A stretch of DNA of 32,000 bases from Flavobacteriaceae bacterium (GTDB lineage: Bacteria > Bacteroidota > Bacteroidia > Flavobacteriales > Flavobacteriaceae): assembly GCA_965224465.1 (NCBI GenBank), contig OZ245049.1:1770001-1802000 (forward strand), written 5' to 3'. How positions within the stretch are numbered: the stretch's first letter is position 1; every line of letters begins with the position of its first letter. The translations under genes were made by a program, and so were the position numbers. Under the pieces are notes generated by a model. That model searched no databases, was not told where the DNA came from, and was given only the letters and a program-made list of their open reading frames with translations. Below are positions 9,737-26,785 of the stretch, in pieces.

Positions 9737-9873
9737 ATACCAGTATATTTAATAGAATCATTTTGTATTAATTCTAGGTAAAAACCTAAGGATAGCCTTA
9801 CCTATCGTTCTATTTTTAGTAACTAAAGAATCAAAATGTCTAATTTACGGCGGTCATTTGGATACGTTTTTTG
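9737..9873 (+). mobile_element. MITE copy B (degenerate), between the blaI-like gene and the M56 sensor gene
   Basis: The central block GATAGCCTTACCTATCGTTCTATTTTT is nearly identical to copy A. The ends (ATACCAG... and ...TTTTTTGG) are eroded. Confidence 0.55.
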
Positions 9874-9906
9874 GAGAGTAAAACAAATGCGCCAACAAAA
9901 AGGCAT

Positions 9907-10284
9907 TTATTCTGAAGTCTTTTCGTCCCCAATCATTTTTAAAATAGCATCCAACTCAGACATGTCTACTTTATTTTTTTTAACAAAAAATGAAACCATA
10001 CTTTTAAAAGACCCCTCGAAATAGCCATCAACAAGCTTGTGTAAAGATTGATTGCTATAAACTTCTTTTTCTACTAAAGGATGATAAACATAGCCTCTCC
10101 CTTTGGCTGTATGTCCAACAAATTCTTTTGTTTCCAAAATTCTAATAATAGTAGATACGGTGTTGTACGCCGGCTTAGGATCTGGTAACTCAACAATTAT
10201 TTCTTTTACCGAAGCCGATTTCAACTCCCATAATACTTGCATAAATTGCTCTTCTGCCTTTGTTAATTGCTTGGTTTTTTCCAT
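9907..10284 (-). CDS. BlaI/MecI/CopY family transcriptional repressor
   Basis: 125 aa. Winged-helix N-terminus (LTKAEEQFMQVLW...SVKEI...YNTVSTIIRILETKEFV) typical of penicillinase repressors. It pairs with the M56 gene. Confidence 0.85.
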   Translation of the reverse strand: MEKTKQLTKAEEQFMQVLWELKSASVKEIIVELPDPKPAYNTVSTIIRILETKEFVGHTAKGRGYVYHPLVEKEVYSNQSLHKLVDGYFEGSFKSMVSFFVKKNKVDMSELDAILKMIGDEKTSE

Positions 10285-10928: not shown

Positions 10929-10974
10929 GTAGTATATTTAGTTGAAACATATAGACCTTGCATAAAGCAGTTAC

Positions 10975-11117
10975 AGCAACAACGTTTCCCAGTGACGGCT
11001 TTGAAATGGAATTATATTTTGTTTTAGCTACACAGGAATTCTAAAGATAGCCTTAGTTATCGTTCTATTTATATCAACAAAAGAAGAAAAACCCATCATT
11101 TTACATCCGTTAATTGG
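10975..11117 (+). mobile_element. MITE copy C (diverged)
   Basis: CAACAACGTTTCCCAGTGACGG...GATAGCCTTAGTTATCGTTCTATTT...ATTTTACATCCGTTAATTGG. Confidence 0.7.
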
Positions 11118-11524: not shown

Positions 11525-11722
11525 AAGGCAAATATACGCCTATTTCTGAAACCACCAGCAATAATTAACTTTTATTTTTAAAAACAAACAGCTACAAGAT
11601 GCAATATCTTAGGTCGCACACCCCTATTACGGAATAAAGCTATCAAAAAAAAACAATTTTCAGAAATACGTTTAATCTCAAATAGAAATCCAATTTTAAA
11701 GTACATTTTATGATATAGATTG

Positions 11723-11730
11723 TATCTTTG
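11723..11730 (+). promoter_or_regulatory. -7 box TATCTTTG upstream of lysS
   Basis: Matches TAnnTTTG 36 nt before the ATG. Confidence 0.35.
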
Positions 11731-11765
11731 GCAACTATTAGTAAATAACATTAAAATTTAGTAAC

Positions 11766-13469
11766 ATGCAGTTATCAGCATTAGAAATTGTACGAAGAGA
11801 GTCGCTACAGAAACTACGTGACTTGGGCATAAATCCATTTCCAGCAGCAGAATTTAAAACCACCGCAACTATAGCTGCGATAAAGAAGGATTTTGATAAG
11901 TTTGAGGGAAAGAAGGTCATATTAGCTGGACGTTTGATGAGTCGACGTATTATGGGAAAAGCTTCCTTTGCTGAATTAAAAGATGCTTCTGGTCGTATGC
12001 AAATTTACATCAACCGAGATGAAATTGCTCCAGAAGAGGATAAAACGATGTACAATACCGTATTCAAAAAATTATTGGATATGGGAGATATAATAGGAAT
12101 CGAAGGAGAAGTTTTCAAGACCAATGTAGGAGAATCATCTGTTCGAGTAAAAAAATTAACGTTATTAACCAAATCATTAAGACCACTCCCTGTAGTTAAA
12201 ACAGATGCAGATGGTAACGTACACGATGCCTTTTCTGATCCAGAAACTCGCTACCGACAACGCTATGTAGATTTGATTGTAAATGACCACGTTAAGGAAA
12301 CCTTTATCAAACGTTCTAAAATCACGAGTTCTATGCGTGAATTTTTCAACAAAAGAGGATATTTGGAAGTAGAAACACCTATTTTACAACCTATCCCTGG
12401 AGGTGCCGCAGCACGTCCGTTTATCACCCACCACAATTCGTTAAACATGCCATTGTATTTGAGAATAGCCAATGAATTGTATTTAAAAAGATTGATCGTT
12501 GGAGGTTTTGATGCCGTTTTTGAGTTTGCAAAAGACTTTAGAAACGAAGGTATGGATCGCACCCATAATCCAGAATTTACAGTAATGGAATTGTATGTAG
12601 CCTATAAGGATTACAACTGGATGATGAACATGACAGAAGAACTGTTAGAAAAAATATGCATTGACTGTAATGACACTTCTGAAGTAATGATAGGAGAACA
12701 TAAAGTGAGTTTTAAAGCACCTTATGCACGTATTCCTATCTTACAAGCCATTAAAGATCATACAGGATATGACGTTGCAGGATTGGATGAATTCCAATTG
12801 CGAGATATTTGCAGAAAACTAAATATGAACGTGGATGAAACCATGGGCGTAGGAAAATTAATTGATGAATTGTTTGGTGAAAACTGTGAACGTCATTATA
12901 TCCAACCTACTTTTATTACAGATTACCCAAAAGAAATGAGTCCTTTAACCAAGGAGCACCGAGACAACCCCGCTTTGACGGAGCGTTTTGAGCTAATGGT
13001 AAATGGTAAAGAATTGGCAAATGCTTATTCTGAATTGAACGACCCTATAGACCAACGTGAACGTTTTGAAGCACAAATGTCCTTATCAGAAAAAGGAGAT
13101 GACGAAGCTATGTTTATTGACCAAGACTTTATCCGTGCTTTAGAATACGGAATGCCTCCAACCTCTGGTATCGGAATTGGAATAGATCGCTTGGTAATGT
13201 TTATGACCAACAATGCCTCCATTCAAGAAGTATTGTTCTTCCCTCAAATGAAACCAGAAGTACTAGCAACACAAACTGTCGAACTTTCAGACGAAGGTAA
13301 AGCCGTTTTAAAATTAGTAGAAAAAGCGGAAAAAATAGTGTTGGCAGAATTAAAAATAGCTGCTGATTTATCCAATAAAAAATGGGATAAAACCATCAAA
13401 GAATTGACGAAGAACAAGGTTGTTAAAGTAGAAAAAAACAACGAAGAATTGTTTGTAACTTTGGCTTAA
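11766..13469 (+). CDS. lysS: Lysine--tRNA ligase (class II) with about 65-aa C-terminal extension
   Basis: OB-fold N-terminus. Class II motifs include FRNEGMD and GIGIGIDRLVMF, with ELNDP and ERFE nearby. An extra tail follows FFPQMKPE. Confidence 0.95.
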   Translation: MQLSALEIVRRESLQKLRDLGINPFPAAEFKTTATIAAIKKDFDKFEGKKVILAGRLMSRRIMGKASFAELKDASGRMQIYINRDEIAPEEDKTMYNTVFKKLLDMGDIIGIEGEVFKTNVGESSVRVKKLTLLTKSLRPLPVVKTDADGNVHDAFSDPETRYRQRYVDLIVNDHVKETFIKRSKITSSMREFFNKRGYLEVETPILQPIPGGAAARPFITHHNSLNMPLYLRIANELYLKRLIVGGFDAVFEFAKDFRNEGMDRTHNPEFTVMELYVAYKDYNWMMNMTEELLEKICIDCNDTSEVMIGEHKVSFKAPYARIPILQAIKDHTGYDVAGLDEFQLRDICRKLNMNVDETMGVGKLIDELFGENCERHYIQPTFITDYPKEMSPLTKEHRDNPALTERFELMVNGKELANAYSELNDPIDQRERFEAQMSLSEKGDDEAMFIDQDFIRALEYGMPPTSGIGIGIDRLVMFMTNNASIQEVLFFPQMKPEVLATQTVELSDEGKAVLKLVEKAEKIVLAELKIAADLSNKKWDKTIKELTKNKVVKVEKNNEELFVTLA

Positions 13470-13499: not shown

Positions 13500-13549
13500 A
13501 AGACTTAAAGCAGGTACTCTTATTCCTACCTGCTTTAAGTCTTTTTTTT
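13500..13549 (+). terminator. Strong intrinsic terminator after lysS
   Basis: 17-bp stem AAGACTTAAAGCAGGTA/TACCTGCTTTAAGTCTT followed by a T8 run. Confidence 0.85.
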
Positions 13550-13760
13550 GCAACTAATTTCTATGTTTTTTCGTTTCTAAATAAGTTCAATGCGTTTTTT
13601 TAAACAAAAGGAGACCTTTTAGATAATACAGATAGTGAAGCTAAATGCAGATTAGGGGTACTGAATGGGAAAAACAAGCTAGAAAGCGCTTTGCCTACTT
13701 TATAGTATTTGACAAAAAAGAAGTTACAGGTTCTTATATACATGCCTTTTTTTCAATGTT

Positions 13761-14714
13761 GGCTAACTCGTCTTTTGTCATGTTTTCTGTTTGAATAAAG
13801 TTAATACTTTTTTTATTCAGACAGCGTTGAGTTTACAGTCCCTTAACCTACTATGTAAACTATTGATGTGCTGAATATGATAAGTCCCTTTGACCCGTTG
13901 GTTTTTACTACTGTTTAAAACATGATGCTCTAAATGAAAATCCTTACTAAACCCAGTAAAATTACGGTGTCCATCTGAACAAAATACGGTTCTATTATCT
14001 ACCATGCTTCCGATAGTGTTTTTTATATTACCCTTGGTAATCCTGGACATATTTGTAAATTTAGACACGCATAGTTCTGCTCTATCTTGGCTTGTTAATA
14101 CCGTTGCGTATTCTTTTGTTATACCTGCTCCCTTCTTTTCGGATCTACTTCTGGGAGGTCTATATACACACTTTTTACCTTTTTGACTGTGTAAATAAAA
14201 GGCCTCATCACTCTCGGTGATTCCTTTGAAATGACCTGTGGTTTCTTGGAACATAGCAGACAAAAAACGATGACGCCATCTAAATGCCGTCCCTGGATCT
14301 ATGGAAAGATCCTTTCCTGTTTTAACCAAACTTAAATTCAATTCAAGTGTTTTTAAAAAGGCAGGTATGCGTTGCTTTTTGTGTATCCCAGCTAGCCAAC
14401 TGCCGGTAAATTCAGTAAAAGTACGTTTGCAATCTTTACATTTATAACGCCTGCTGTTTTTATCTACACCTGCTTTTATATAGTGATAGCCATTGCTAAA
14501 AGGGCATTCACCCCTTCTGTAATCTAAAGCATTCCCTCTTATTTTAATAATGTCTACATAACTTCCTGATTTGCAAAGAGACTGAAATTATTTAAGCAAA
14601 ATATCCTGCTTAGTTACATCTAGACAGTCAAAATATTTTAAAATACCTGAACTACCCATCATGATTCTGTTTTTCAGCAAATTACGAGATAAAACGCTAT
14701 TTACAAGTTGAGCC
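13761..14714 (-). mobile_element. Decayed IS1595-family (ISPna2-group-like) insertion sequence
   Basis: Imperfect terminal inverted repeats GGCTAACTCGT (13761) and GGCTCAACTTGT (reverse complement, ending at 14714). The internal transposase reading frame is interrupted. No matching target duplication was seen. Confidence 0.65.
13817..14662 (-). pseudogene. IS1595-family transposase, disrupted
   Basis: The frame from ATG 14662 has an in-frame TAA at 14590-14588 (codon 25). It then continues through a Zn-ribbon (CPF...YKCKDCKRTF), TAFRWRHRFL, ITESDEAFY and HIQHINSLHSRL. It ends early at KLNAV, where family members continue as FNGVATKYL. Confidence 0.7.
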
Positions 14715-14939
14715 AAATTTAACCAAAATCAAATAATGAGGTTGCGTGTAGCTTCTGGTTTGCCAAATATTCAAAAAGGTGATGTTAGTAATTTTAATTT
14801 TTTAATACCACAAAAAGAAGAACAACAAAAAACAGCCACTTTTCTATCATCCATAGATACATCTATAGACATTATGACTAATCAAATTGATGATTCAGTA
14901 ATGTTTAAAAAAGGGTTGTTGCAAAAAATGTTTGTGTAA
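14715..14939 (+). pseudogene. hsdS: Type I R-M specificity subunit (HsdS) C-terminal fragment
   Basis: ...GLPNIQKGDVSNFNFLIPQKEEQQKTATFLSSID...KKGLLQKMFV is the conserved end of an HsdS target-recognition domain plus the C-terminal helix. Homology starts exactly at the IS boundary. Confidence 0.75.
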
Positions 14940-14976
14940 ATTGTCATTCATAATTAAAGATCTATAATTGGTTATA

Positions 14977-15114
14977 TTGCGCCTATATTTTTAATACAAA
15001 GGTCATTTGCGCCTAATAATTTTGCTTTACGCCTGTATTTTATGTATTTTGCGCTTGTATTTTTTAAATTATGTCAAATACCGCTCATTTTTTATTTTTT
15101 GCGCCTACTTTTAA
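14977..15114 (+). repeat. Five direct copies of the TTGCGCCTnTATTTT box
   Basis: Boxes start at 14977, 15007, 15027, 15049 and 15099, giving spacings of 30, 20, 22 and 50 nt. The last box lies inside the annotated 5' end of the fic ORF. Confidence 0.7.
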
Positions 15115-16636
15115 TGGTTTGGTTTTACCTATAAAAGGGTATATGGTAGGTTATACCGCTATTATACATAAGTTACGACTTGCTGTACCTATAAGCAAGC
15201 CTATTGCTATAATTTCATTGAATACAAAACGCCTTAAAAATGATGATTTTTTAGTATTGCCAAAAAGTTATCTAGTAAAAGATGTCGTACAAAATTCAGA
15301 GATTGAATCCTTATATAATCATTTAGTATTTGCATTAAAATATGAAGGTGTTCATTTATTAGTATTTAGCGCTATTACAAAATATTATTCAAAAGATGCA
15401 TTAGTACAATTATTAAGCATAGAACCAACAGGGCAATACTCAAGAAGAATGTGGTTTTTAATAGAATGGCTTTTACAAAAAGAACTAAAAGCGATTCCAA
15501 ATCTTGCTAATAAAAAAAGTTATGTTTCCGTAATAGATACAAAATTGCAATATGCAGTTGCAGGTATAAAGTCATCTCGACATCTGGTCATAAATAATCT
15601 ACCAGGAACAGTCCATTTTTGTCCATTAATCAAAAAGACAGAAAAACTCGAGAATTATATTTTACAAAACTTAAAAAGTAAAAGGATAGAGACGCTAAAA
15701 GGGTTTAAAAAAGACTTATTACAGCGTACAGCAGCCTATTTATTATTAAAAGATTCAAAGGCATCATTTACCATAGAAGGCGAAAGTCCTAAGAGTAAAC
15801 GAACGGCACGTTGGGGAAAAATAATTGGGCAAGCAGGAGCAAAAAGGCTGAACCAAGAAGAATTGATACGGCTACAACAAGAGCTTATAGAAAATTCACG
15901 TTTTGTAGCAATGGGGTTTCGTAAAAAAGGTGGTTTTGTAGGTGAGCATAATCGTACCACTGGCGAACCTATACCAGAGCATATATCTGCAAAATGGCAA
16001 GATATAACACGATTAACAGAAGGTTTAATAGATACCAATACAATTTTAGCCAACAGTGATATAGATGCTGTATTAGCCGCAACAGTCATTGCTTTTGGTT
16101 TTGTTTTTATTCATCCGTTTGAAGATGGTAATGGACGTATTCATCGGTATTTGATTCACCATATTTTAGCAGAAAAAAAGTTTACCCAGCAAGGGCTTAT
16201 TTTTCCTGTTTCTTCTTCTATTTTAGACCATATTGTAGATTATAGAAATGTATTGGAACACTATTCTCACAGTATATTAGATTTTATAGATTGGAAAGAA
16301 ACGAAAGGGCACAATATTGACGTATTAAACAATACGATAGATTATTACCGCTATTTTGACGCTACCAAACAAGCAGAGTTTTTGTATGATTGTGTAAATG
16401 ATACTATAGACAACATCATTCCTCAAGAAATAAATTACCTTCAAAAATATGACGAATTTAAAAATTATGTAGAGGAAGAGTTTGAGATGCCAGATAGTAT
16501 AGTTGCTTTATTAGTTCGATTTTTAGAACAAAATGATAGTAAACTATCAAAAAGAGCAAAAGAAAAAGAATTTTCAATGTTAAATAATGATGAGGTTAAT
16601 CGAATTGAAGAAACGTATCATCAAATTTTCAATTAA
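15071..16636 (+). CDS. Fic family protein (probable AMPylase) with intramolecular inhibitory motif
   Basis: Canonical Fic motif HPFEDGNGRIHR (16112-16147). A SxxxEG inhibitory-helix motif SFTIEG (15764-15781) lies N-terminal to it. 521 aa, though the start could be the internal M24. Confidence 0.85.
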   Translation: MSNTAHFLFFAPTFNGLVLPIKGYMVGYTAIIHKLRLAVPISKPIAIISLNTKRLKNDDFLVLPKSYLVKDVVQNSEIESLYNHLVFALKYEGVHLLVFSAITKYYSKDALVQLLSIEPTGQYSRRMWFLIEWLLQKELKAIPNLANKKSYVSVIDTKLQYAVAGIKSSRHLVINNLPGTVHFCPLIKKTEKLENYILQNLKSKRIETLKGFKKDLLQRTAAYLLLKDSKASFTIEGESPKSKRTARWGKIIGQAGAKRLNQEELIRLQQELIENSRFVAMGFRKKGGFVGEHNRTTGEPIPEHISAKWQDITRLTEGLIDTNTILANSDIDAVLAATVIAFGFVFIHPFEDGNGRIHRYLIHHILAEKKFTQQGLIFPVSSSILDHIVDYRNVLEHYSHSILDFIDWKETKGHNIDVLNNTIDYYRYFDATKQAEFLYDCVNDTIDNIIPQEINYLQKYDEFKNYVEEEFEMPDSIVALLVRFLEQNDSKLSKRAKEKEFSMLNNDEVNRIEETYHQIFN

Positions 16637-16639
16637 AAT

Positions 16640-16950
16640 AACTACACAACCCGAACAAATATTAGAAAATAATTTGCTTTCTCAATTACAAAAATTGGGT
16701 TACAAAAGTGTTGTCATAAAAGATGAAACTGATTTATTGGAAAATCTAAAAAGTCAATTAGAAATTCATAATAAGATAACGCTCTCCTCGCAGGAGTTTA
16801 AGTAGGTATTAAACTATATCAACAAAGGCAATATCTTTGAGCTCGCCAAAATATTAAGAGATCGTGTTCCTTTTATCAATGATAAAGGCGAACACAAAAC
16901 CGTAGAACTCATCAACCAAGTACATTAGTGTAAAAACGAATTTCAGGTTA
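16640..16950 (+). pseudogene. hsdR: Type I restriction enzyme R subunit (HsdR) N-terminal fragment
   Basis: ...EQILENNLLSQLQKLGYKSVVIKDETDLLENLKSQLEIHNKITLSSQEFK*VLNYINKGNIFELAKILRDRVPF...INQVH*CKNEFQVTQQ. There are two in-frame TAG codons (16803-16805 and 16926-16928, the latter where family members have W). It is truncated at MITE copy D. Confidence 0.75.
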
Positions 16951-17100
16951 CCCAACAACATTTCCAAGAGACCGTTTAGAAATGTAATTATATTTTTTAG
17001 CTAAGCGAAAAATGGATGGATAGCCTTGCTATTGTTCTGTTTTTCAAAAATGCTAGCACGTAAAATAAACTATTTATATCGGCTGTTTTGGATTGTAATT
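16949..17100 (+). mobile_element. MITE copy D (GT subfamily), abutting the hsdR fragment
   Basis: TACCCAACAACATTTCCAAGAGACCG...AAATAAACTATTTATATCGGCTGTTTTGGATTGTAATT. Confidence 0.8.
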
Positions 17101-17215
17101 TATTAGGCCATGCCTCTCCGAAAACCACAGAGTTTTACACCAAGACCATCGAAATTAACAATAAAAAAAATATTGGATCGCTTAAAAAGCGAAAAAAATT
17201 GAATACTTTTAACAA
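17100..17215 (+). pseudogene. Tyrosine recombinase C-terminal remnant (copy 1)
   Basis: It reads LLGHASPKTTEFYTKTIEINNKKNIGSLKK, which contains the LLGHxSxxTTxxYT motif with the catalytic Tyr. No upstream recombinase body is present, because the MITE end is immediately 5'. Confidence 0.6.
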
Positions 17216-17325
17216 AAAACCAATACATACCCGAAACTATTATAGACACAACGGAAATAACGTCAAGTTTTGGAAGTTTATTGATGATATATGGGTGTTA
17301 CAAAATATTAGAAAACAAACATAAT

Positions 17326-18513
17326 ATGGCTTGGATTGAAATAAAAGGCTATCCTAACACAAGAATGAAAATCAAACTCCCTGAAGTAGTGGGAATTGAG
17401 GCAATTGAATGTATTACTAACTTAGATAAAGGTTCTGACAATAAAGGTGTTGGAGGAGTTTTAAAAGGTTTTGTTTACGGGAAAGAATACGAATTCAAAA
17501 TAAGCAAATATTACAAAGACCGATTACTTTCTGACAAAATAAAAAAAGAAATAGTTTGGGAATATGAATATGTTAATGATGACGGAGAAGTTATTAATAT
17601 TATTCAAAAAGAATACTCTGGAGATAAATTTCAACTAAAAATAGAAAACTTAAAAATGCTTGGTAAAAATATTTGCATTTATTGTCATTTGAAAAATCAA
17701 GAATCAGGTGCTTCAATAAGTAAATTTTGCCATAATAGATTTAGATTTTTTGACAGGAAAGCAATAGAAAATGAACTAAATAAAAGAAGAAGTAATCCTG
17801 AATTAGCAAATCAAAGTAGAACACCAACTTGTGGAATGGCTTCCATATTCTATATTTTAGCAAAAAAAGATTTTGATAACTATCAAAACTTCATACTTGA
17901 TTTACATCAAACCGGTATTGCTAAATGTAACTCATATGAAGTTGATGTTTCTAAATGTGATCATTTATTAGAAATAAATCCCGTTTTAGACATTTTATAC
18001 CCAGCATTGTATGGTAAAAAAATGCCATATATTGATTGGATTCCTTTTTCTTGTATTAGAGACTTAGAAAATAATTTACCTATAAGTTATAATGGAAAAA
18101 TGAGCCAATCTTCATTAGATGAGTTTTCTGGAGCTACATTACCCCACGAGATAGAAAAATTAATGAAAAAGCTTTTAGGTTTCAAAAAAATTATAAATGA
18201 CACTAATCTAGTTTTCAATAAAGATAGCCAAGCTTTTGGTGAGATATCTGCTAGAGAATTAAAGAAATTACAAGATTTATATTTAGACGGATATAATATA
18301 TGCTTATTTATTAACACAAATATGATAAGCAATAAAGAGTCTGGAATTTTGTCGACAATTGAACATTGGGTTGTTTTTGAGGGAATTATTGGTGGAACAA
18401 TTAGTTGGGATGAATATGATTTTAAAGTATTTACTTGGGGTGCTATAGAAGATGTTATTGTTAATCCTGAATCATTCAGGTCAAATTATTATGGTTATGT
18501 TGCAGGTAAATAA
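17326..18513 (+). CDS. Papain-fold (C39-like) Cys/His peptidase-domain protein, candidate effector/toxin
   Basis: The start is set at ATG 17326 because homology with the cassette-2 leader ends exactly there. There is no signal peptide. Q-x5-TCGMAS has the candidate nucleophile Cys at 17830-17832, and IEHWVVFEG has the His at 18364-18366, followed by D/E residues. The N-terminal ~140 aa form a separate domain predicted here to be beta-rich. Confidence 0.6.
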   Translation: MAWIEIKGYPNTRMKIKLPEVVGIEAIECITNLDKGSDNKGVGGVLKGFVYGKEYEFKISKYYKDRLLSDKIKKEIVWEYEYVNDDGEVINIIQKEYSGDKFQLKIENLKMLGKNICIYCHLKNQESGASISKFCHNRFRFFDRKAIENELNKRRSNPELANQSRTPTCGMASIFYILAKKDFDNYQNFILDLHQTGIAKCNSYEVDVSKCDHLLEINPVLDILYPALYGKKMPYIDWIPFSCIRDLENNLPISYNGKMSQSSLDEFSGATLPHEIEKLMKKLLGFKKIINDTNLVFNKDSQAFGEISARELKKLQDLYLDGYNICLFINTNMISNKESGILSTIEHWVVFEGIIGGTISWDEYDFKVFTWGAIEDVIVNPESFRSNYYGYVAGK

Positions 18514-18922
18514 AAAACTTATTTATATTTTTTTAATCATACAATTATTAAGTTGTAATAAAAAAAATAAGAATTGTGATTTACAAGATGCTATTCTTCA
18601 AAGAATAATTTTAAAAAATTTTAAAAAATCTAGTTTAAAAACCCTTTCTATAAATAAAGAAAAACAAGATTATCTTTTAAAAACAGACCCTAATAGTTCT
18701 TATGCTTACATTCAACTAACTCCTCTTATTTTTAGAGAATTGAAAAAAGGGAAAACTTTGTTTACTATTAATGACTCATTGAATTATACTATTTCTGAGA
18801 TAAAAACAGACTCTATTATGAGACAAACTATGGTAAATGAATTTAAAGATTGTATTTTGGTGTCCTATAAAATTAATGATTCTTTAATTTATCATCATCA
18901 GAAAATAATTATAAATCGATAA
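18497..18922 (+). CDS. Small lipoprotein, candidate cognate immunity protein
   Basis: MLQVNKKLIYIFLIIQLLSCNKK has a signal peptide with lipobox LLSC. The start overlaps the upstream gene's stop (18511-18513) by 17 nt. The 142 aa are very AT-rich. Confidence 0.55.
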   Translation: MLQVNKKLIYIFLIIQLLSCNKKNKNCDLQDAILQRIILKNFKKSSLKTLSINKEKQDYLLKTDPNSSYAYIQLTPLIFRELKKGKTLFTINDSLNYTISEIKTDSIMRQTMVNEFKDCILVSYKINDSLIYHHQKIIINR

Positions 18923-18933
18923 AAACGTTTTGT

Positions 18934-19203
18934 AATCGAGTAGACGGCTCCAACAAACATAGCTGGAAGGCGCCTCTCACACCACTGTACATACGAGAAC
19001 TTCGCTCATTCATTTAATTACAAGTATAAAAACACTTCTAATTCTCATGAACCTATACGGAGGTGTAAAAAATTAAAGTCTTTATATTATTGACATCCCA
19101 TTTCTTATTGATTTTTACCGAAAAATCATGAGGTAACGTAAAAAAACAAGGAGACAACAGTTTTAACAAAAAGTATTTCGAATTGATTTTTTCGAATTCA
19201 ATA
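18934..19203 (+). repeat. Conserved inter-cassette 3' module, copy 1
   Basis: Aligns with 21749-21814 plus 22117-22357, for example AATCGAGTAGAC..CTCCAACAAACATAGCTGG.AGGCGCCTCTCACACCACTGTACATACGAGA and ACTTCGCTCATTCATTTAATTA... It starts 11 nt after the cassette stop codon. No ORF. Confidence 0.8.
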
Positions 19204-19357
19204 ACACCAAATACATTTCCAAGTGACGGATTAGAAATGTAATTATATTTTTTTAGCTAAGCGAAAAATGGATAGATAGCCATCGCTATCGTTCTATTTT
19301 TTAACAACGCTAGCACGTAAAATAAACTATTTATATCTGTTGTTTTGGATTGTAATT
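19204..19357 (+). mobile_element. MITE copy E (GT subfamily)
   Basis: ACACCAAATACATTTCCAAGTGACGGATTAGAAATGTAATTATA...GATAGCCATCGCTATCGTTCTA...TGTTTTGGATTGTAATT. Confidence 0.85.
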
Positions 19358-19446
19358 TATTAGGCCATGTCTCTCCAAATACAACTGAGGTTTACACGAG
19401 GACCATTGTCATAAACAAAAAGAATATAACACTCTTGAAAATTTAA
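19357..19446 (+). pseudogene. Tyrosine recombinase C-terminal remnant (copy 2)
   Basis: It reads LLGHVSPNTTEVYTRTIVINKKNITLLKI*. It has the same junction with the MITE end as copy 1. Confidence 0.6.
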
Positions 19447-19584
19447 AAAAATTAGATATCTTTAACAAGAAAATAACTAGCCCCTCATCCAATTAATAGG
19501 GATAACGGATTAGCGTCAACTTTAAGACTGGTGTTTTCGATATATGGGAGTTGTTGTAATACATTACAGAAAACAATATACTAA

Positions 19585-21738
19585 ATGAAAAAAAGCGAGA
19601 AAATTATAATTACAACTATTCTATCTCTTTTTCTTGGAGTTTTAATATTCGGACATCATTTTACTACCCCGCTATTAATTAGCACATCTATTCTAAGTCT
19701 TTGCTACATCGTAGGTGGATTTTATTTTTTAAATTATCAAAATGACAAAGACAAACTAAATATAATAGCAGGAATAATTTTAGGCTCTGCTCTTGGTGTT
19801 TTCACATTTACGTTATGGCTTCCAGTATCTGTTTTCCGTAAGATTTTAGTATCCATAAATATCATGTTTTCGATTCTATTAATTGGATTTTGGATTTATA
19901 AAAAACATAATTTTAATAAAAAACTTAAATATATACTTTTCAGGTCTATAACTATAGCTGTTTTTACTTCATTTTTCTCTTTATCTAGCGTTCATTTTAA
20001 CGCATACAGGAATCTATTATTAAGAATGCTTACTCCTGATTCTAATCTGTCTAATAACTTATTAATGTTTGAAAAAACAGGTGAGTATAACGACTTTATG
20101 AATTTAAAAAAATATGACTTAGCTATTGTTAAAGCCAAAGAAGCAATCTTATGTGGCAAAAAACGGAAAGATTATGACACTTTATATTATCAAGATTTCT
20201 CTGGAACTTATAAATATTTATCAAATGCTTATATAGCAAATGGAGATAAGTTTTTCGATAAAAATGACTTTAAGAATGCTTTATCTAATTATATAAAAGC
20301 AGACAGCGTTTTAACACATAAAGAACATAAGCCTAAATACGTGAAATCAACAAAAACATATATTTACTGGAATCATTATAATCTATTATTAACATATAAT
20401 AAGCTTTTAGATTATGACAATTATGATTCTGAACTTGATTATTTAGTTGATAATTATTTAAAAGTTAAAGACACTTGTGATATCGACTATCATCATATAT
20501 TAAAAAACGCATCTAGTAATTATTACACTCGCTCATATTACAGTGATGCAATAGACCTAAATAAAATGTCTTTAATTATTTTAAATCAAGACAGTGTTAA
20601 TAATATAGATTTATTTAAGAGCACCTATGTTCGATTAATTAAAAATTATTTAATTACTGACAGCACCGAAACCGCAAAAAAATATTTAAAAAAATATGAA
20701 AAAATAACTTCAAATAACGACTGTCGATATCTGTTTTACAAAACTAGAATTCTCCAAAAAGAAAACATTAAAGAAGCTTTAGAGATTGCTAAAAAAACTA
20801 GCGAATGTTTTGAACAAGCAAACAAACCTTTAAGTTTGTATGCTTCAAATCTATTATTACTAAAATTAGAACTTGAAAACTCAAATTACAAGAACTTTGA
20901 AAAGCAACTAAAAATTACTCAAGATTTAATTTCACAAACTAATAATAAAAGATATAATCAATCATTTATAGATGAATTATTAGGTTATTATAATTCTATA
21001 AAGGGTAATTATATTAACTCAAAAAAGTACTATATAAAAGCTCTTAATAATCCTAAAAATTTTGAAGGAGTCCAAAAAAAATCACTTGAATTAAAAATAG
21101 CACAAATAAATGACGAGCTAGATATTAATTATGATAAAAAGAGCCTTAACTTAAATATTCTGAATTTTTTGTCAGAGCATGAGACCAATTATCCAAGCAC
21201 TACGACTTTTCATAACAATTTAGGGAACATTAACATTGGATTCAATTCAAAACTATCTGATTCTATTTTTAAAGTAACGATTGAATGCCATAAAAGATTT
21301 GGAATAAACAAATCTGCTCAATTAGGAATCGCTTACAATGGTCTAGCAACAACTCAATTACATCGTAAAAAGTACAAAAAATCTGATTCCTTATACTTAA
21401 TTGCTATTAAAAACCTAGATAAATTTTATGGTAAACAACAAAATGTAAATCAACTTATATGTTATTTAAATATTATTGAGTTAAAGTTAAATCAAAAAAA
21501 ATATGATACAGGTTTAGATTTCTTAGAAAAAGCCCGCTTAACGAAGCTAAATTGCTTCAATAAAGAAGTAACAATATATGATGCATATCTACTAAATTTA
21601 GAAGGGGATCTAATTAGAGTGAACAAAAAAAACAAAACTCTATCAACTGACAAATACAATCAAGCATTAGATATAGCAAAGAATTATTTTAATGATACTC
21701 ATAGATTTATAAAAAAACTCAAGAATAAAATACAATAA
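19585..21738 (+). CDS. Multi-pass membrane protein with long TPR-like helical-repeat C-terminal region
   Basis: 717 aa. About 5 hydrophobic helices lie in the first ~140 aa. Y/N/K-rich repeats of about 34-40 aa with A/L/Y periodicity follow. The sequence is extremely AT-rich and no catalytic motif was recognised. Confidence 0.6.
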   Translation: MKKSEKIIITTILSLFLGVLIFGHHFTTPLLISTSILSLCYIVGGFYFLNYQNDKDKLNIIAGIILGSALGVFTFTLWLPVSVFRKILVSINIMFSILLIGFWIYKKHNFNKKLKYILFRSITIAVFTSFFSLSSVHFNAYRNLLLRMLTPDSNLSNNLLMFEKTGEYNDFMNLKKYDLAIVKAKEAILCGKKRKDYDTLYYQDFSGTYKYLSNAYIANGDKFFDKNDFKNALSNYIKADSVLTHKEHKPKYVKSTKTYIYWNHYNLLLTYNKLLDYDNYDSELDYLVDNYLKVKDTCDIDYHHILKNASSNYYTRSYYSDAIDLNKMSLIILNQDSVNNIDLFKSTYVRLIKNYLITDSTETAKKYLKKYEKITSNNDCRYLFYKTRILQKENIKEALEIAKKTSECFEQANKPLSLYASNLLLLKLELENSNYKNFEKQLKITQDLISQTNNKRYNQSFIDELLGYYNSIKGNYINSKKYYIKALNNPKNFEGVQKKSLELKIAQINDELDINYDKKSLNLNILNFLSEHETNYPSTTTFHNNLGNINIGFNSKLSDSIFKVTIECHKRFGINKSAQLGIAYNGLATTQLHRKKYKKSDSLYLIAIKNLDKFYGKQQNVNQLICYLNIIELKLNQKKYDTGLDFLEKARLTKLNCFNKEVTIYDAYLLNLEGDLIRVNKKNKTLSTDKYNQALDIAKNYFNDTHRFIKKLKNKIQ

Positions 21739-21748
21739 TAACGCACTA

Positions 21749-22357
21749 CAATCGAGTAGACAACTCCAACAAACATAGCTGGCAGGCGCCTCTCACACCA
21801 CTGTACATACGAGAGGAGAGTTTTATTTTAAAAAAACCAGTGGAGCTGATAACGTATAGCTACTTGTAAAAAGGTATTGAAAAATAATTTTAGTAGTATT
21901 GATAATGTTACATCGGAGGATGTCTTTTATGCAGTATATATGTTCAAAAGCTGCGAGAATAGGAACGACCTTAGGAGGGACGCGCAGTTTTGGATATGGT
22001 TTTTAAGAAGGCTTTTTTGCCGCCTTAAAAAATACCTCATAAAAGTCTCCTTTTTTGGTTCGTTTTTTGGAGAAGCAAAAAATGAACATACAGGATAAAA
22101 TGACGTCAATGGTAGAACTTCGCTCATTCATTTAATTATAAGTATAAAAACACTTCTAATTCTCATGAACCTATACGGAGGTATAAAAAATTAAAGTCTT
22201 TCTATTATTGACATCCAATTTCTTATTGATTTTTACCGAAAACCCATGAGGTAACGTAAAAATAAGGAGTCAACAGTTTTAACAAAAAGCACCTGATTTT
22301 TTACCGACAAAACGGTTAATAAAAAGTATTTAGAATTGATTTTGTCGAATTCGTGTA
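21749..22357 (+). repeat. Conserved inter-cassette 3' module, copy 2 (carries 302-bp and 37-bp insertions)
   Basis: Same sequence as 18934-19203 but interrupted at 21815-22116 and 22290-22326. It starts 11 nt after the cassette stop codon. Confidence 0.8.
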
Positions 22358-22513
22358 ACACCAAATACATTTCCAAGTGACGGATTAGAAATGTAATTAT
22401 ATTTTTTAGCTAAGCGAAAAATGGATGGATAGCCATCGCTATCGTTCTATTTTTTTAACAACGCTCACACGTAAAATAAACTATTTATACCGGCTGTTTT
22501 GGATTGTAATTGG
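22358..22513 (+). mobile_element. MITE copy F (GT subfamily)
   Basis: ACACCAAATACATTTCCAAGTGACGGATTAGAAATGTAATTATA...GGCTGTTTTGGATTGTAATTGG. Confidence 0.85.
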
Positions 22514-22674
22514 GACAAGAAGCTAAACCAAAGAAAAAGCATAAAAACCAACCAGCTCAGAGACTTTACAAATAAACAATTCCTCAAGAAATATTTTAGA
22601 GAGAAAAGACATACACGCGTCTAAATGGCTCGATTATTGAAGTGTGAGCAGGATATAATGAATTTATTTTTATC

Positions 22675-23895
22675 ATGAAAAAACTGCTATATTTTCTATT
22701 CCTAACCCCTTTTATTCTTGTAACATGTAAGTTAGAAAAGGAAACATCTATAAAAAAAAGGGCTACACATGTGGGTACATACCAAGGTATTTTACCCTGT
22801 GCCGATTGTCTAGGAATTAAAACAACCATCGAACTCACAAAAAACAACTGTTATGTTTATACTACAGAATACCTAGATAAAAAACCAAATATTTTTGTAG
22901 AAAAAGGAAATTACACCTTAGACAAAGACATTCTTAATCTCCCTTTAAGTAATCAGGAAATTCTACACCTAAAAATTAAAGAAAACCAACTGATATACTT
23001 AGGCAGAGATACCATTGTAAACACAGGGTCTTTGGCTGCCTTTTACATCTTAAAAAAGCAAGTATCGAATAACACTACGTTTAGTGGTAGTTACAAAACA
23101 GAAACTAAAACAGGAACTAGCCCCCTAACATTAAGTATAGAAAAAAAAGACGACACATATTCCGTACATATAACAGGTACTAAAACAAAAGACACCTGTA
23201 ATTTTTACGGACAAGGATTTGTTAAAAACGACACCCTTTTCTTGAGTAAATCTCCAAAGAACAAACGCATTTCAATAGCAATAACAGCAGTCAAAAACAA
23301 CAATGGTCTGCACATATCCTCAATAAAGCCTGAGGGACAATTTGCTTTGACGCACTACTGCGACGACAAAATATCCATCGCAGGAACGTACCTGAAATTT
23401 GACGAAGCCTTTCTTATAACAAAAAAACAAGTCGGAATGTTCAATCCACAAATGAGCATTGAAGACATTCTAAACAGACTTCCTGCTGATCAAGTTAAAA
23501 AAAAAGTTGGTCATGGAGAGTTTAAAGATGATCTTTATGATGATTATGAAATTTACGACACCGAGCACAAACTATTAGTGACCATAAGTCCAAAAAAACA
23601 AGGAGATACCCAACAAAAAATAAACCGTATCACTATTCAAAGTCAGTTGTATCAAACAGTCAAAGGAATTAATAAAAACACTACTTATGGAACTGTTGAA
23701 CAAGCGTATTTTATAGACAAAATAGTCCCAACAAGAACACATATCATTTTAGAAATAAAAAGTATAAATGCCTGGCTAAGCATCTCTAAATCAAAATTAG
23801 AAAAAGGATGGTGGGATGCAAACAAAAAAACCATTGACACCCATAAAATCCCAAAATCAGCAACAATAGATCAATTCTACATTTGGTGGAATTAA
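22675..23895 (+). CDS. Lipoprotein with NlpE-like N-terminal domain
   Basis: Signal peptide with lipobox LVTC. YQGILPCADCLGIKTTIEL resembles the NlpE N-terminal CxxC motif. The remaining ~300 aa are uncharacterised. Confidence 0.6.
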   Translation: MKKLLYFLFLTPFILVTCKLEKETSIKKRATHVGTYQGILPCADCLGIKTTIELTKNNCYVYTTEYLDKKPNIFVEKGNYTLDKDILNLPLSNQEILHLKIKENQLIYLGRDTIVNTGSLAAFYILKKQVSNNTTFSGSYKTETKTGTSPLTLSIEKKDDTYSVHITGTKTKDTCNFYGQGFVKNDTLFLSKSPKNKRISIAITAVKNNNGLHISSIKPEGQFALTHYCDDKISIAGTYLKFDEAFLITKKQVGMFNPQMSIEDILNRLPADQVKKKVGHGEFKDDLYDDYEIYDTEHKLLVTISPKKQGDTQQKINRITIQSQLYQTVKGINKNTTYGTVEQAYFIDKIVPTRTHIILEIKSINAWLSISKSKLEKGWWDANKKTIDTHKIPKSATIDQFYIWWN

Positions 23896-23974
23896 TATCT
23901 ACGACCAAATACTCTGCTTAATATAAAGCTGAGAAAAACCTTTTTCTCAACAGACGGTTATACACGAAATCACC

Positions 23975-24007
23975 ACCGCTAAATTTAAAAACTTAGCGGT
24001 TTTTTTA
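23975..24007 (+). terminator. Intrinsic terminator after the NlpE-like gene
   Basis: ACCGCTAA-N10-TTAGCGGT followed by a T7 run. Confidence 0.75.
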
Positions 24008-24060
24008 TGCCTGTTTTTTAAAAAGAGCTAAAAACACCGAGCCTACATTCTTCCACAAAA

Positions 24061-24163
24061 CAATTACAATCCAAAATAAACTATCTAAATAGATTATTTT
24101 ACGTTCTAGCGTTGTTAAAAAATAATTCCATTTCTAAACCATCACTTGGAAATGTATTTGATA
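24061..24163 (-). mobile_element. MITE copy G (103 bp, internally deleted form, inverted orientation)
   Basis: The reverse complement reads CAAATACATTTCCAAGTGATGGTTTAGAAATGGAATTATTTTTTAACAACGCTAGAACGTAAAATAA...TTTTGGATTGTAATTG. It lacks the ~49-nt central block TAGCTA..GATAGCC..GTTCTATTTT. Confidence 0.8.
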
Positions 24164-24292
24164 TAATTAGTGCTTTGCGAGCAATTCAAAAAGACCTACA
24201 ATTACCACGTCCCTTTAACAAATAATTAAGAGTCTACACGCACACTTTTTTTTAAATTGCATCTATAAAAATCTGATATCAAATAAAGCAAT

Positions 24293-26785
24293 ATGAAGTT
24301 CACCCTAATCACCAAAATTCTAGCATTTATGCTCATTTTTGGAATCACCAGTAACATTGATGCGCAACGCAAAAAAAAGCGTAAAAAAAAATCAAAAACA
24401 GAAGTCGCTGCCCCCAAACCTAAAAAAGGAGCTATACAAGCTTACAGTAAGGTAATCACAAAAAAAACAATCACGGATGAAGGCTTGTTTAAAGTTCATA
24501 GGAATGACGAAAAATATCTTTTCGAGATTCCTGATAGTTTATTAGAACGAGAAATGTTAATGGTTACTCGTATTGCAAAAACTGCTTCAGGAATTGGCTT
24601 TGGAGGAGGAAAAACCAATACACAAGTATTAAGATGGCAAAAAAAAGGAAAAAAAATTGTATTACGAGTAGTTTCGTATGCGGTGGTAGCCAATGATTCT
24701 TTACCTGTACACGAAGCCGTTGTAAATTCAAATTTTGAAGCTATACTTTACACCTTTCCAATCAAAGCATTTGGAAAAGATTCTACTTCTACAGTAATTG
24801 ACGTTACCGATTTATTTTCTAAAGACGTCAAAGCCATTGGTTTCCCTGTAAGACAACGTAAACACTACAAAATATCTTCTTTAAACAGTCAAAACTCGTT
24901 TATCGAAAGCATAAAAAGTTACCCCTTAAATATAGAAACACGTCATATAAAAACCTATAACGCATCCGCTGCACCATCCAATAGAAGCACAGGAAGCATC
25001 TCTGTAGAAATGAGTAACTCTATGATTTTGCTGCCAAAAACACCTATGAAACGTCGATTTTTTGACGAGCGTGTGGGCTGGTTTACTTCAAGACAAACAG
25101 ATTATGGGCAGGAAGCACATAAAAGTAAATCAATAAAGTTCTTAGACCGATGGAATTTAGAAGTTAAAGATGAAGATCTTGAAAAATTCAAAAGAGGAGA
25201 ACTGGTAGTTCCTAAAAAACAAATTGTTTATTATATAGACAGAGCTACACCAACAAAATGGGTGAAATACATTAAACAAGGCATCGAAGATTGGCAAGTA
25301 GCCTTTGAAGCAGCAGGTTTTAAAGAAGCCATTATTGCTAAAACACCTCCTACAAAAGAAGAAGATCCAGATTGGAGTCCAGAGGATGTTCGCTATTCCG
25401 TAGTCCGTTATTTGGCATCTCCTATTCCAAATGCCAATGGACCTCATGTAAGTGACCCTAGATCGGGAGAAATTTTAGAATCTGACATCAACTGGTATCA
25501 CAATGTGATGACTTTATTACACGACTGGTATTTTATACAAACAGCTGCTATAAATCCAGACGCTCGCGGAAATGAATTTAAAGACGAAGTAATGGGAAGG
25601 TTAATTCGTTTTGTATCATCACACGAAGTAGGACATACCTTAGGTTTACCTCATAATATGGGAAGTAGCTGTGCGTATACCGCAGAGAATTTACGTAGCG
25701 CTGCATTTACCAAAGAATTTGGAACAGCACCTTCTATTATGGACTATGCGCGTTTCAACTATATAGCGCAACCAGAAGACAAAGGAGTTGCCATGATGCC
25801 AGAAGTAGGAATTTATGACAAATACGCCATCAGTTGGGGATACAGACCCATTCCTAACACGACAGAATCTGAAGAAAAACCAACTTTAGACGCATGGATT
25901 TTAAAACATGCAGGAGATCCTTTATATCGTTTTGGACAACAACAATCTGGAGAAGTAATAGATCCGAGCTCTCAAACAGAAGATTTGGGATCAAACGCAA
26001 TCATCTCTAGCCAATATGGAATTGCCAATTTAAAACGTATTGTACCTAAGTTGGAAGAATGGACTTCAGAAAAAGGAGAGAATTATGACAATTTAAAAAC
26101 CATGTACGGGCAAGTAATAATTCAATTTGGTCGATATATGGGACATGTTACGGCTAATATTGGAGGTGTTTATAAACATACAAAAACCAGTGACCAAGCA
26201 GGAGCTGTATACACCTATGTATCTAAAGACCATCAAAAAAATTGTTTGAAATTTATTCAGTCAGAATTGTTCAAAACACCACTTTGGCTATTGGATGACA
26301 CTATTTTTAATAAAATAGAATATTCAGGAGCCATTGAACGTATTCGTAAATTACAAGTAAAATCGTTGCATGCTATTTTAAGTATTACACGCATGGCGCG
26401 CTTGATAGAAAACGAAGCTAAAAACGGTTCAAATGCATATACTTTAGCTGAAATGATGAGCGACTTACGAAAAGGGATTTGGAAAGAAATATACACTGGA
26501 AAAACATCCGATGTATACCGTCGTAACTTACAACGTGCTTATGTGGAAGAATTAGGTCGTTTAATGACTTCCAAAAGTGTCCAAAAAGGTTCTAATTACC
26601 GAGGATACCGAAAAACCACGGCAGTAAACACCAATCAATCTGATATTAAAGCAATGGTTAGAGGCGAATTAAAACGCTTGCAGCGCGATGTTAAAAAAGT
26701 GATGTATACTGGAAATACAACTACTAAATATCATTTACAAGACATAGAAGAACGTATTGATTTGATTTTACACCCGATTAAATAA
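24293..26785 (+). CDS. Secreted zinc-dependent metalloprotease (met-zincin type)
   Basis: 830 aa with a signal peptide, a lysine-rich linker and the HEVGHTLGLPHN zinc site. Confidence 0.85.
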   Translation: MKFTLITKILAFMLIFGITSNIDAQRKKKRKKKSKTEVAAPKPKKGAIQAYSKVITKKTITDEGLFKVHRNDEKYLFEIPDSLLEREMLMVTRIAKTASGIGFGGGKTNTQVLRWQKKGKKIVLRVVSYAVVANDSLPVHEAVVNSNFEAILYTFPIKAFGKDSTSTVIDVTDLFSKDVKAIGFPVRQRKHYKISSLNSQNSFIESIKSYPLNIETRHIKTYNASAAPSNRSTGSISVEMSNSMILLPKTPMKRRFFDERVGWFTSRQTDYGQEAHKSKSIKFLDRWNLEVKDEDLEKFKRGELVVPKKQIVYYIDRATPTKWVKYIKQGIEDWQVAFEAAGFKEAIIAKTPPTKEEDPDWSPEDVRYSVVRYLASPIPNANGPHVSDPRSGEILESDINWYHNVMTLLHDWYFIQTAAINPDARGNEFKDEVMGRLIRFVSSHEVGHTLGLPHNMGSSCAYTAENLRSAAFTKEFGTAPSIMDYARFNYIAQPEDKGVAMMPEVGIYDKYAISWGYRPIPNTTESEEKPTLDAWILKHAGDPLYRFGQQQSGEVIDPSSQTEDLGSNAIISSQYGIANLKRIVPKLEEWTSEKGENYDNLKTMYGQVIIQFGRYMGHVTANIGGVYKHTKTSDQAGAVYTYVSKDHQKNCLKFIQSELFKTPLWLLDDTIFNKIEYSGAIERIRKLQVKSLHAILSITRMARLIENEAKNGSNAYTLAEMMSDLRKGIWKEIYTGKTSDVYRRNLQRAYVEELGRLMTSKSVQKGSNYRGYRKTTAVNTNQSDIKAMVRGELKRLQRDVKKVMYTGNTTTKYHLQDIEERIDLILHPIK

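Follow-up and report, generated by a model that had tools for sequence, protein, structure and literature searches.

Two overlapping genes in a 32,000-nucleotide stretch of a Flavobacteriaceae genome (contig OZ245049.1, positions 1,770,001 to 1,802,000; the whole stretch is referred to as the window) encode a protein of 395 amino acids and a lipoprotein of 141 amino acids. The pair is probably an antibacterial effector-immunity cassette of a type VI secretion system (T6SS) of Bacteroidota subtype iii, composed of a hydrolase that would act in the periplasm and a lipoprotein that would provide immunity. An interbacterial effector had been proposed in an initial annotation of the locus, and the proposal gains support from homologues fused to TssD/Hcp, DUF4280, VgrG, Rhs and eCIS core domains and from a homologue encoded in a tssD-vgrG cluster. 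The effector domain is uncharacterised: no Pfam model, NCBIfam model, solved structure or publication was found for it. Coordinates of all features are collected in Table 1.

Both open reading frames (ORFs) are real genes and not chance ORFs, because both have homologues and low ratios of nonsynonymous to synonymous substitution (dN/dS). Protein searches recovered 49 homologues of the effector (best E = 1e-241) and only seven close homologues of the lipoprotein. In comparisons with three orthologous pairs, the effector has a dN/dS of 0.13-0.23 and the lipoprotein one of 0.22-0.31; the two genes are under purifying selection and have retained their function. In three of the four pairs compared, the lipoprotein has diverged further than the effector, with effector and lipoprotein identities of 89/65% (locus L001), 80/61% (P0002/P0055) and 71/55%, and the two partners are equally diverged in P0003/P0053 (76-77% identity). 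P0002/P0055 is a second, diverged pair that apparently lies on the same replicon as the window.

The translated effector has no hydrophobic stretch at its N-terminus and hence no signal peptide, as had been stated at first. The lipoprotein gene begins in another frame within the 3' end of the effector gene and overlaps it by 17 nucleotides when counted from the ATG at 18497; alternative in-frame ATGs are present at 18491 and 18452, and the mechanical ORF call begins at the latter. The lipoprotein N-terminus (MLQVNKKLIYIFLIIQLLSC...) is a standard lipoprotein signal with the lipobox that had been recognised earlier. The length then given, 142 amino acids, is in fact 141, as the 142 codons include the stop.

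The effector contains the motifs NQSRTPTCGMASIFYIL, which includes Gln163 and Cys169, and STIEHWVVFEG, which includes His347. These had been taken as a papain-type Cys/His arrangement, and conservation across the family agrees with this assignment. Two alignments were analysed, one of 33 homologues (A1) and one of 67 diverse relatives (A6). Gln163, Cys169 and His347 are the only columns invariant in A6; the Gly after Cys169, Asp237 in a DWI motif, Trp348 and a Trp within a TWG motif come close to invariance. In papain, the oxyanion-hole residue is Gln19 and the nucleophile is Cys25, and the same spacing of six residues separates Gln163 from Cys169. Three features of clan CA are present: in the model the Cys is at the N-terminal end of a helix, the Gln precedes it, and the His is on a strand and follows the Cys, which is the canonical catalytic order. 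After His347 there is no conserved Asn or Asp of the kind that orients the imidazole in clan CA, and the position preceding the conserved TWG motif is F, Y, V or W in A1. The only conserved acidic residue is Asp237, which is invariant in A1, lies between Cys169 and His347 in the sequence and is the sole candidate for a third catalytic residue.

Structural modeling is consistent with these assignments. The whole effector was modelled by AlphaFold2 from the 33-sequence alignment (pLDDT 87.4, pTM 0.85), and the model consists of strands throughout residues 1-135 and of mixed alpha and beta structure in residues 136-395. Foldseek comparison of the whole model with PDB gave FN3, PKD and Ig matches to the N-terminal sandwich, all weak (best E = 1.6e-3). 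Because the whole protein retrieved this sandwich only, the C-terminal domain was also modelled separately, again with confidence (pLDDT 89.8, pTM 0.90). Nearly all of the top 50 PDB matches to this domain are clan CA enzymes, matched weakly and none at E < 1e-3; they include staphopain C and A, calpain protease cores, bleomycin hydrolase, IdeC, a Josephin-type clippase and PeiR, as well as Lpg2622, Pd_dinase, ficin and cathepsins of the C1 family. The best match is staphopain C (8oig; E 4e-3, TM-score 0.45 on the target), and calpain cores have TM-scores of 0.42-0.44 on the query. Matches in BFVD, likewise weak, are to Peptidase_C1, AvrRpt2-like and calpain-like proteins. The models support a papain-like fold class for the C-terminal domain and no particular family. 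The possibility of a non-catalytic fold or of unconserved Cys and His, which the initial annotation had asked to be checked, is not borne out: Gln, Cys and His are invariant, and the structural neighbours, weak as the matches are, are nearly all papain-like peptidases. The separate N-terminal domain that had been described is present and comprises about 135 residues, not about 140. Its conserved columns in A1 are G36, S37, N39, G48 and W78, and among the proteins examined it was found only joined to the C-terminal domain.

Sequence models do not place the effector in any described family. Searches of Pfam-A, NCBIfam and PDB sequences with each single protein gave no match above threshold for either the effector or the lipoprotein; a match to PNK3P (E = 0.002) was below its own cutoff, covered 50 residues and was treated as noise. 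No peptidase family model matched in Pfam scans of each of the 33 homologues, and profiles built from A1 and from A6 matched no chain among all PDB sequences. Membership of family C39, to which the protein had initially been likened, is rejected: the Pfam models Peptidase_C39 and Peptidase_C39_2 match none of about 100 family members scanned, with E limits of up to 1 for A1, up to 10 for P0062-P0064 and P0057, and up to 0.001 for A6. One relative is named 'Peptidase C39-like domain-containing protein' in UniRef, a label that the Pfam scan did not reproduce. The NlpC/P60 and Tae families, also suggested for comparison, fared no better; the NLPC_P60, CHAP and Tae4 models were absent from Pfam scans of the effector and its relatives, and DUF4105 and DUF6695 gave no match. 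Literature on T6SS effectors and papain-like toxins yielded no paper on the effector family.

The family is large. When 1.84 billion cluster representatives were searched exhaustively with a profile of the whole effector, 1,903 matched at E <= 1e-3 and 1,216 at E <= 1e-10, which corresponds to about 1,900 clusters at 50% identity. Among the matches listed, many relatives align over the C-terminal 260 residues alone. Members occur in Bacteroidota and also in Yersinia, Klebsiella, Serratia, Pantoea and Salmonella, and sequence composition suggests further phyla. The Yersinia pseudotuberculosis IP31758 plasmid p_153kb encodes a 392-amino-acid homologue (locus L020, region 6536-8102) with the motifs Q...C, DW and HWVVWEG. 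C-terminal-domain matches are also obtained from Serratia, Pantoea and Salmonella houtenae, and such homologues on enterobacterial plasmids are annotated merely as hypothetical proteins. On a 2.7-kb Klebsiella pneumoniae plasmid (L019, 284-1904) the homologue is apparently split into two ORFs.

Relatives of the effector are joined to components of contractile injection systems. Four homologues from the first search carry an N-terminal TssD/Hcp domain (PF17642; P0005, P0028, P0038 and P0045), and two carry the PAAR-like domain DUF4280 (P0007 and P0032). The closest named relative, P0057 of Aquimarina muelleri (525 amino acids), has a TssD domain at residues 2-135, is annotated by NCBI as 'type VI secretion system tube protein TssD' and clusters with a 71%-identical relative (P0004). 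Pfam carrier domains in the 67 diverse relatives are DUF4280 (five), TssD (three), eCIS core/DUF4157 (two), RHS (one) and VgrG (one); the last is a full VgrG with Phage_GPD, DUF2345 and T6SS_Vgr. Judged from sequence, these fusions are the signature of a polymorphic toxin domain serving contractile injection systems. The stand-alone form, by the same kind of evidence, is a regular cargo effector, because forms of 393-397 amino acids recur in several genomes and one is encoded inside an hcp-vgrG operon. This one is the Chryseobacterium homologue P0035 (393 amino acids), and the gene order is tssD, vgrG, DUF3289, lipoprotein, P0035, a 126-amino-acid membrane protein, a 267-amino-acid protein and a 1353-amino-acid DUF4280 toxin. 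The 89%-identical pair in L001 adjoins a VgrG/SUKH-3 island. The link to the T6SS through Hcp, VgrG and PAAR is seen in homologues and not in the window copy.

Domains taken as peptidoglycan-binding are also found among the 67 relatives, namely PG_binding_1 in two, PG_binding_3 in one and OmpA in one. P0151 begins with a segment that resembles LysM by eye and has no model match. Papain-fold wall hydrolases are common, and together with these few peptidoglycan-binding relatives they would fit a protein that is not a weapon at all, such as a cell-wall hydrolase or protease of housekeeping or phage type that works with a regulatory partner. This is hardly probable: without a signal peptide the protein could not reach its own periplasm, its relatives are fused to Hcp, VgrG, PAAR-like, Rhs and eCIS domains, and the cassette is mobile, low in GC and patchily distributed.

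The gene downstream of the effector supports the earlier suggestion that the lipoprotein is an immunity candidate. In five distinct loci a gene of the same lipoprotein family comes directly after that of the toxin and overlaps it out of frame in the same way. These are L001, L006 (a Hyunsoonleella metagenome-assembled genome, MAG), L007 (A. muelleri), L009 (Chryseobacterium ureilyticum) and L010 (a Flavobacteriaceae MAG; the same locus as L015, with a DUF4280 fusion). Distant members follow Hcp-fused toxins with no overlap in L004 (A. muelleri), L005 (Flavobacterium pectinovorum) and L021. The last is a plasmid of the salmon pathogen Tenacibaculum finnmarkense (CP116296, 154 kb), on which the TssD-fused homologue and the lipoprotein are found in the region 2108-9771. 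In the lipoprotein family the lipobox Cys is nearly invariant, two later Cys residues (C27 and C119) are invariant, and the motif INDSLxYxIS...C.L..YK.NDS is shared.

A small envelope protein is encoded immediately downstream of the toxin in 12 of the 13 distinct loci. Eight of these are lipoproteins, among them an unrelated one of 128 amino acids (lipobox LSAC) that follows the Yersinia homologue; one has a signal anchor, and three are polytopic membrane proteins (L008, L011 and L017). The combination of a conserved envelope neighbour with a signal-less toxin is a standard signature and points to a periplasm-acting effector and its immunity protein, because the downstream gene encodes an envelope protein across phyla, Yersinia included. 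Polytopic and lipoprotein neighbours alternate as if, among toxins of a single family, one type of immunity had been exchanged for another, and this may point to a membrane-proximal substrate.

The envelope location of these neighbours also bears on whether the toxin could act in the cytoplasm. Cpe1, EvpQ and TsaP, the C39-like toxins of the T6SS and of contact-dependent inhibition (CDI), are papain-fold Cys/His toxins on PAAR, VgrG and Rhs carriers with the immunity gene immediately downstream, and in these respects the window family is similar. Cpe1 cleaves cytoplasmic GyrB and ParE, and its partner Cpi1, in the form studied, is soluble and binds it directly (PMC12136450). Were the window protein a protease of this type, cleaving an essential cytoplasmic protein, the lipoprotein would be unrelated to immunity. 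Such an activity is very unlikely because the neighbours in the window family, unlike Cpi1, are lipoproteins or membrane proteins, targeted to the envelope in 12 of 13 loci and conserved across phyla. The UniRef label mentioned above and the presence of the C. rodentium CdiA-CT toxin (8ssk) among weak Foldseek matches would favour it, but the alignment to 8ssk has a root-mean-square deviation of about 18 A, neither ComA nor LahT is among the 50 best structural matches, and the domain, about twice the size of that of these toxins, has no sequence link to C39 models or PDB chains. A further point in its favour is Tox-PLC39, a C39-like class of Bacteroidetes predicted in silico with T6SS, PVC and RHS associations (Zhang et al. 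2012; PMC3482391). The window family shares these phyla and associations, in a comparison made by description only, and may be Tox-PLC39.

In the preferred interpretation of a periplasmic T6SS effector, we infer delivery of the window copy, its site of action, its substrate and its inhibition by the lipoprotein. The signal-less protein would most likely travel as cargo on the Hcp tube or on the VgrG/PAAR spike and be injected into Gram-negative neighbours. In the target periplasm the papain-like domain would hydrolyse an essential envelope component, with Cys169 as the nucleophile, His347 as the base and Gln163 in the oxyanion hole. A peptide or amide bond of peptidoglycan appears the most likely substrate; peptidoglycan is favoured on account of the peptidoglycan-binding domains in four relatives and of a catalytic order that is canonical and not permuted. 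The N-terminal beta-sandwich would be part of the toxin module and may bind the substrate or aid loading. The overlapping lipoprotein gene is probably translationally coupled to the effector gene, and its product, anchored in the membrane on the periplasmic side and probably disulfide-bonded, would bind and block the toxin in the producer and its kin. The pair moves as a 1.64-kb cassette, the window copy being located in a horizontally acquired, repeat-rich island away from T6SS genes. The window copy may or may not be deployed; it is intact and under purifying selection.

Several observations weigh against this interpretation. The structural matches are weak, with no Foldseek E < 1e-3 and TM-scores of 0.3-0.45. 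The canonical Asn/Asp following the His is not conserved among relatives, and no sequence model of a peptidase family matched in single-protein searches, homologue scans or profiles. Peptidoglycan-binding fusions are few (4 of 67 relatives). Pfam searches of all larger ORFs found no T6SS gene in the window, in agreement with the absence of secretion genes recorded at first, and the window copy has no fused delivery domain. Polytopic membrane neighbours in three clades would fit a membrane-proximal substrate as well.

Such a substrate remains a serious rival to peptidoglycan and has a small but real share of the probability. Delivery and site would be the same, and the targets would be acyl esters of phospholipids, either the lipid or the peptide moiety of lipoproteins, lipid II, or a protein of the periplasm or outer membrane. 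Besides the three clades just mentioned, this view is favoured by the fact that lipoprotein immunity is typical of lipase effectors too, and by the size of the catalytic domain, which at about 260 amino acids far exceeds that of known small amidase effectors and has proteases as its best structural neighbours. Tox-Act1, a papain-fold phospholipase with permuted catalytic order (His43 before Cys151), offers a precedent in that its lipid target has been argued from its membrane-associated immunity protein (PMC12994826). Like Tox-Act1 and TseH, the window pair combines a papain-superfamily Cys-His toxin with an immunity protein that is associated with the membrane, and Tox-Act1 is toxic in the periplasm. 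However, the Cys-before-His order of the window effector is unlike that of the permuted lipid-directed NlpC/P60 enzymes, and four relatives have peptidoglycan-binding domains whereas none has a lipid-binding domain. A permuted NlpC/P60 domain of the Tox-Act1 type was rejected for the window effector on the basis of its canonical order (Gln163, Cys169, His347) and of the lack of DUF4105 and DUF6695 matches.

The closest functional parallels to the preferred reading are Tae1/Tse1-Tsi1, Tae2, Tae3 and Tae4-Tai4. These systems and the window pair have in common a signal-less Cys-His hydrolase of the papain superfamily, a link to the T6SS and an adjacent small gene for a periplasm-facing immunity protein. 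Periplasmic action is predicted for the window family, and its relatives' peptidoglycan-binding fusions suggest a comparable link to the cell wall. In contrast to the Tae effectors, the window effector matches no NlpC/P60, CHAP or Tae4 model, and its structural neighbours are staphopain-, calpain- and C1-type proteases and not NlpC/P60 proteins. The catalytic domains of Tae effectors have about 130-160 amino acids, whereas the window catalytic domain has about 260 with a large helical insert and is preceded by a conserved beta-sandwich.

The pair forms a discrete unit at the nucleotide level. In blastn searches, positions 17298-18935 of the window are 85% identical to L001, L002 and L003 over 1,640 nucleotides, with shorter matches to L006 and L007, and no nucleotide homology to the matching genomes was found beyond these positions. 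Because the homology stops exactly there, the pair constitutes a 1.64-kb unit. On this evidence it is a mobile cassette in a low-GC, repeat-rich island, which is in keeping with the orphan module that the initial annotation had described, and the island contains recombinase and insertion sequence (IS) fragments. GC content is 24-31% at 16-23 kb and 33-39% in flanking housekeeping genes. The pair had also been viewed as one cassette of an array, and long direct repeats do flank the toxin pair and the next two genes.

These surroundings raise the question whether the window copy, rather than being delivered itself, is a module that is silent or orphaned, displaced from a full-length Hcp-fused toxin gene and kept as a recombination reserve, or chiefly for an immunity gene that would serve as acquired protection from neighbours firing the toxin. 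Its distance from any T6SS gene, the low-GC island with its long repeats and IS1595, HsdR-like and tyrosine-recombinase fragments, the Hcp fusion of the closest named relative in A. muelleri, and the second diverged pair apparently on the same replicon are all consistent with such a module, and the low GC and intergenic repeats are reminiscent of rAID-1 arrays (bioRxiv 10.1101/471110). The idea is nevertheless an unlikely one: the intact effector ORF is more strongly constrained by purifying selection than the immunity gene is, stand-alone forms of 393-397 amino acids exist in several genomes, one of them inside an hcp-vgrG operon, and the array holds one toxin-immunity pair, not a series of immunity genes, with no intact recombinase.

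Similarity to rAID-1 of Bacteroidales is confined to certain features. In both, a cluster of low GC is interspersed with repeated intergenic sequences, there are signs of a tyrosine recombinase, and the cargo is related to type VI toxins (bioRxiv 10.1101/471110); in the window, co-oriented genes of low GC with repetitive sequence between them span 17326-23895. Unlike rAID-1, the window has no intact 5' XerD-like recombinase and only two C-terminal fragments, and its one toxin-immunity pair precedes genes for a TPR membrane protein and for a lipoprotein with an NlpE domain. Membership was rejected because no recombinase is intact and the repeat core is dispersed, occurring also between housekeeping genes. 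Pfam searches detected no intact tyrosine recombinase or Phage_integrase ORF in the window. The two fragments read LDCNLLGH(A/V)SP(K/N)TTE(F/V)YT, which is the C-terminal box of tyrosine recombinases, and comprise the last ~30 codons only.

The dispersed repeat adjoins housekeeping genes as well as island genes. Its 17-nucleotide core motif is present in 7 copies in the window against 0.4 expected, and its hairpin, GATAGC-N4-GCTATC followed by a T-run, is terminator-like. Read as RNA, the repeat is predicted to fold far more stably than shuffled sequences (z = -4.7). The repeat is genomic, not an array-specific recombination site, because the core also occurs between housekeeping genes. It is absent from 12 related loci (L001-L012), Rfam searches of the repeats at gathering and permissive thresholds gave no RNA family, and it could be a miniature inverted-repeat transposable element (MITE)-like or repetitive extragenic palindrome (REP)-like element or a module marking transcription-unit boundaries. 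The copy at 22361-22511 is of the type found upstream of the cassette. An insertion of about 300 nucleotides (21815-22113) splits the second copy of the post-cassette repeat relative to that at 18910-19199. The 89%-identical cassette in L001 is flanked by its own direct repeat of about 110 nucleotides (9840-9960 and 11650-11770) and by a fragmented integrase; the motif TATATTTAGCTAAG, common to this repeat and the window repeat core, could be a promoter or an insertion site. In the T. finnmarkense plasmid, the toxin and lipoprotein genes immediately adjoin two tandem pairs, each of an IS91-family transposase and a tyrosine recombinase, and these elements are a possible vehicle for such cassettes. 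A tRNA-Lys call by ARAGORN (20851-20950, minus strand, 100 nucleotides) inside the 717-amino-acid ORF is regarded as spurious by its length and location.

A more far-reaching view, also doubtful, is that the family is a distinct and so far undescribed branch of papain-like hydrolases. It would have a non-canonical Gln-Cys...Asp...His arrangement with the acidic residue supplied by the insert that separates Cys from His, a dedicated beta-sandwich and an envelope target other than the usual cross-link of peptidoglycan (for instance a lipoprotein, lipid II or the lipoprotein-wall tether), and its cassettes would be shuffled by tyrosine-recombinase/IS91-type elements in an integron-like system outside Bacteroidales, in Flavobacteriia. 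Such a target would account for the occurrence of lipoprotein and polytopic immunity in different clades, and the long repeats would be remnants of the elements.

Table 1. Features of the effector-immunity locus and its surroundings. Positions are those of the window unless another locus is named.
Feature	Position	Strand	Remarks
Effector gene	17326-18513	+	ATG 17326, TAA 18511-18513; 395 aa, two domains, no signal peptide
Immunity-candidate lipoprotein gene	18497-18922	+	ATG 18497; 141 aa; lipobox LLSC, Cys codon 18554-18556
N-terminal all-beta domain, residues 1-135	17326-17730	+	Ig/FN3-like sandwich; motif LDxGSxNDGxG...YGKxYxFKV
C-terminal papain-like (clan CA) cysteine hydrolase domain, residues 136-395	17731-18510	+	Predicted toxin domain; separate model and Foldseek
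Gln163 codon CAA	17812-17814	+	Predicted oxyanion-hole residue; invariant in A1 and A6
Cys169 codon TGT	17830-17832	+	Predicted nucleophile; invariant in A1 and A6; opens modelled helix 169-181
Asp237 codon, DWI motif	18034-18036	+	Candidate third catalytic or substrate-binding residue; role suggested by conservation
His347 codon CAT, HW motif	18364-18366	+	Predicted general base; invariant in A1 and A6; opens modelled strand 347-354
Mobile two-gene cassette	17298-18935	+	From 28 nt before effector ATG to 13 nt past lipoprotein stop
Upstream flanking repeat	16952-17167	+	~145-nt core, then recombinase-like fragment; repeat families D2, D3, D5
Tyrosine recombinase C-terminal-end fragments	17088-17170 (LDCNLLGHASPKTTEFYT); 19342-19440	+	From translation; second degenerate
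Post-cassette repeat	18910-19199; again 21726-21814 plus 22114-22352	+	Second copy after next gene; families D2-D5, D8, D10, D13 (for 18910-19424 as a whole)
Second copy of upstream repeat	19207-19424	+	With degenerate recombinase fragment; terminator-like hairpin 19275-19290
Dispersed intergenic repeat	6679-6835; 9780-9836 (partial); 10971-11115; 16952-17100; 19207-19357; 22361-22511; 26924-27077; 24122-24138 (- strand)		~145-nt core
Low-GC island	13500-24300		Between lysS and Met-zincin gene; three repeat-bounded units
IS1595-type transposase fragment	13817-14341	-	In island
Fic-domain protein gene	15071-16636		521 aa; in island, upstream of cassette
Truncated ORF	16587-16805		72 aa; by eye resembles N-terminus of type I restriction R subunit (HsdR-like); no model support
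717-aa protein	19585-21738		N-terminal transmembrane segments, weak TPR matches; not obviously toxin-related
406-aa protein	22675-23895		NlpE N-terminal domain, lipoprotein; not obviously toxin-related
Polytopic membrane protein in place of lipoprotein	L008 11082-11321; L011 11139-11510; L017 9210-9590		

The effector family is uncharacterised and widespread, and the type of system to which it belongs is well understood. The cassette resembles the Tae amidases in its predicted working and has its fold class in common with Cpe1 and the C39-like toxins, and it matches the sequence models of neither. It is credibly a new weapon family and not a new kind of system. Contact-dependent toxins with cognate immunity are already well known, and the gain is in breadth and not in principle. 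If the interpretation is correct, a very widespread toxin domain would gain a name and a predicted active site, and a new lipoprotein family of immunity proteins would be recognised. The occurrence of lipoprotein and polytopic immunity among related toxins would provide a natural experiment on the determinants of substrate specificity. An effector class would also be added to the poorly charted T6SS-iii arsenal of Flavobacteriia, which include fish pathogens such as Tenacibaculum, where a homologue is carried on a plasmid.

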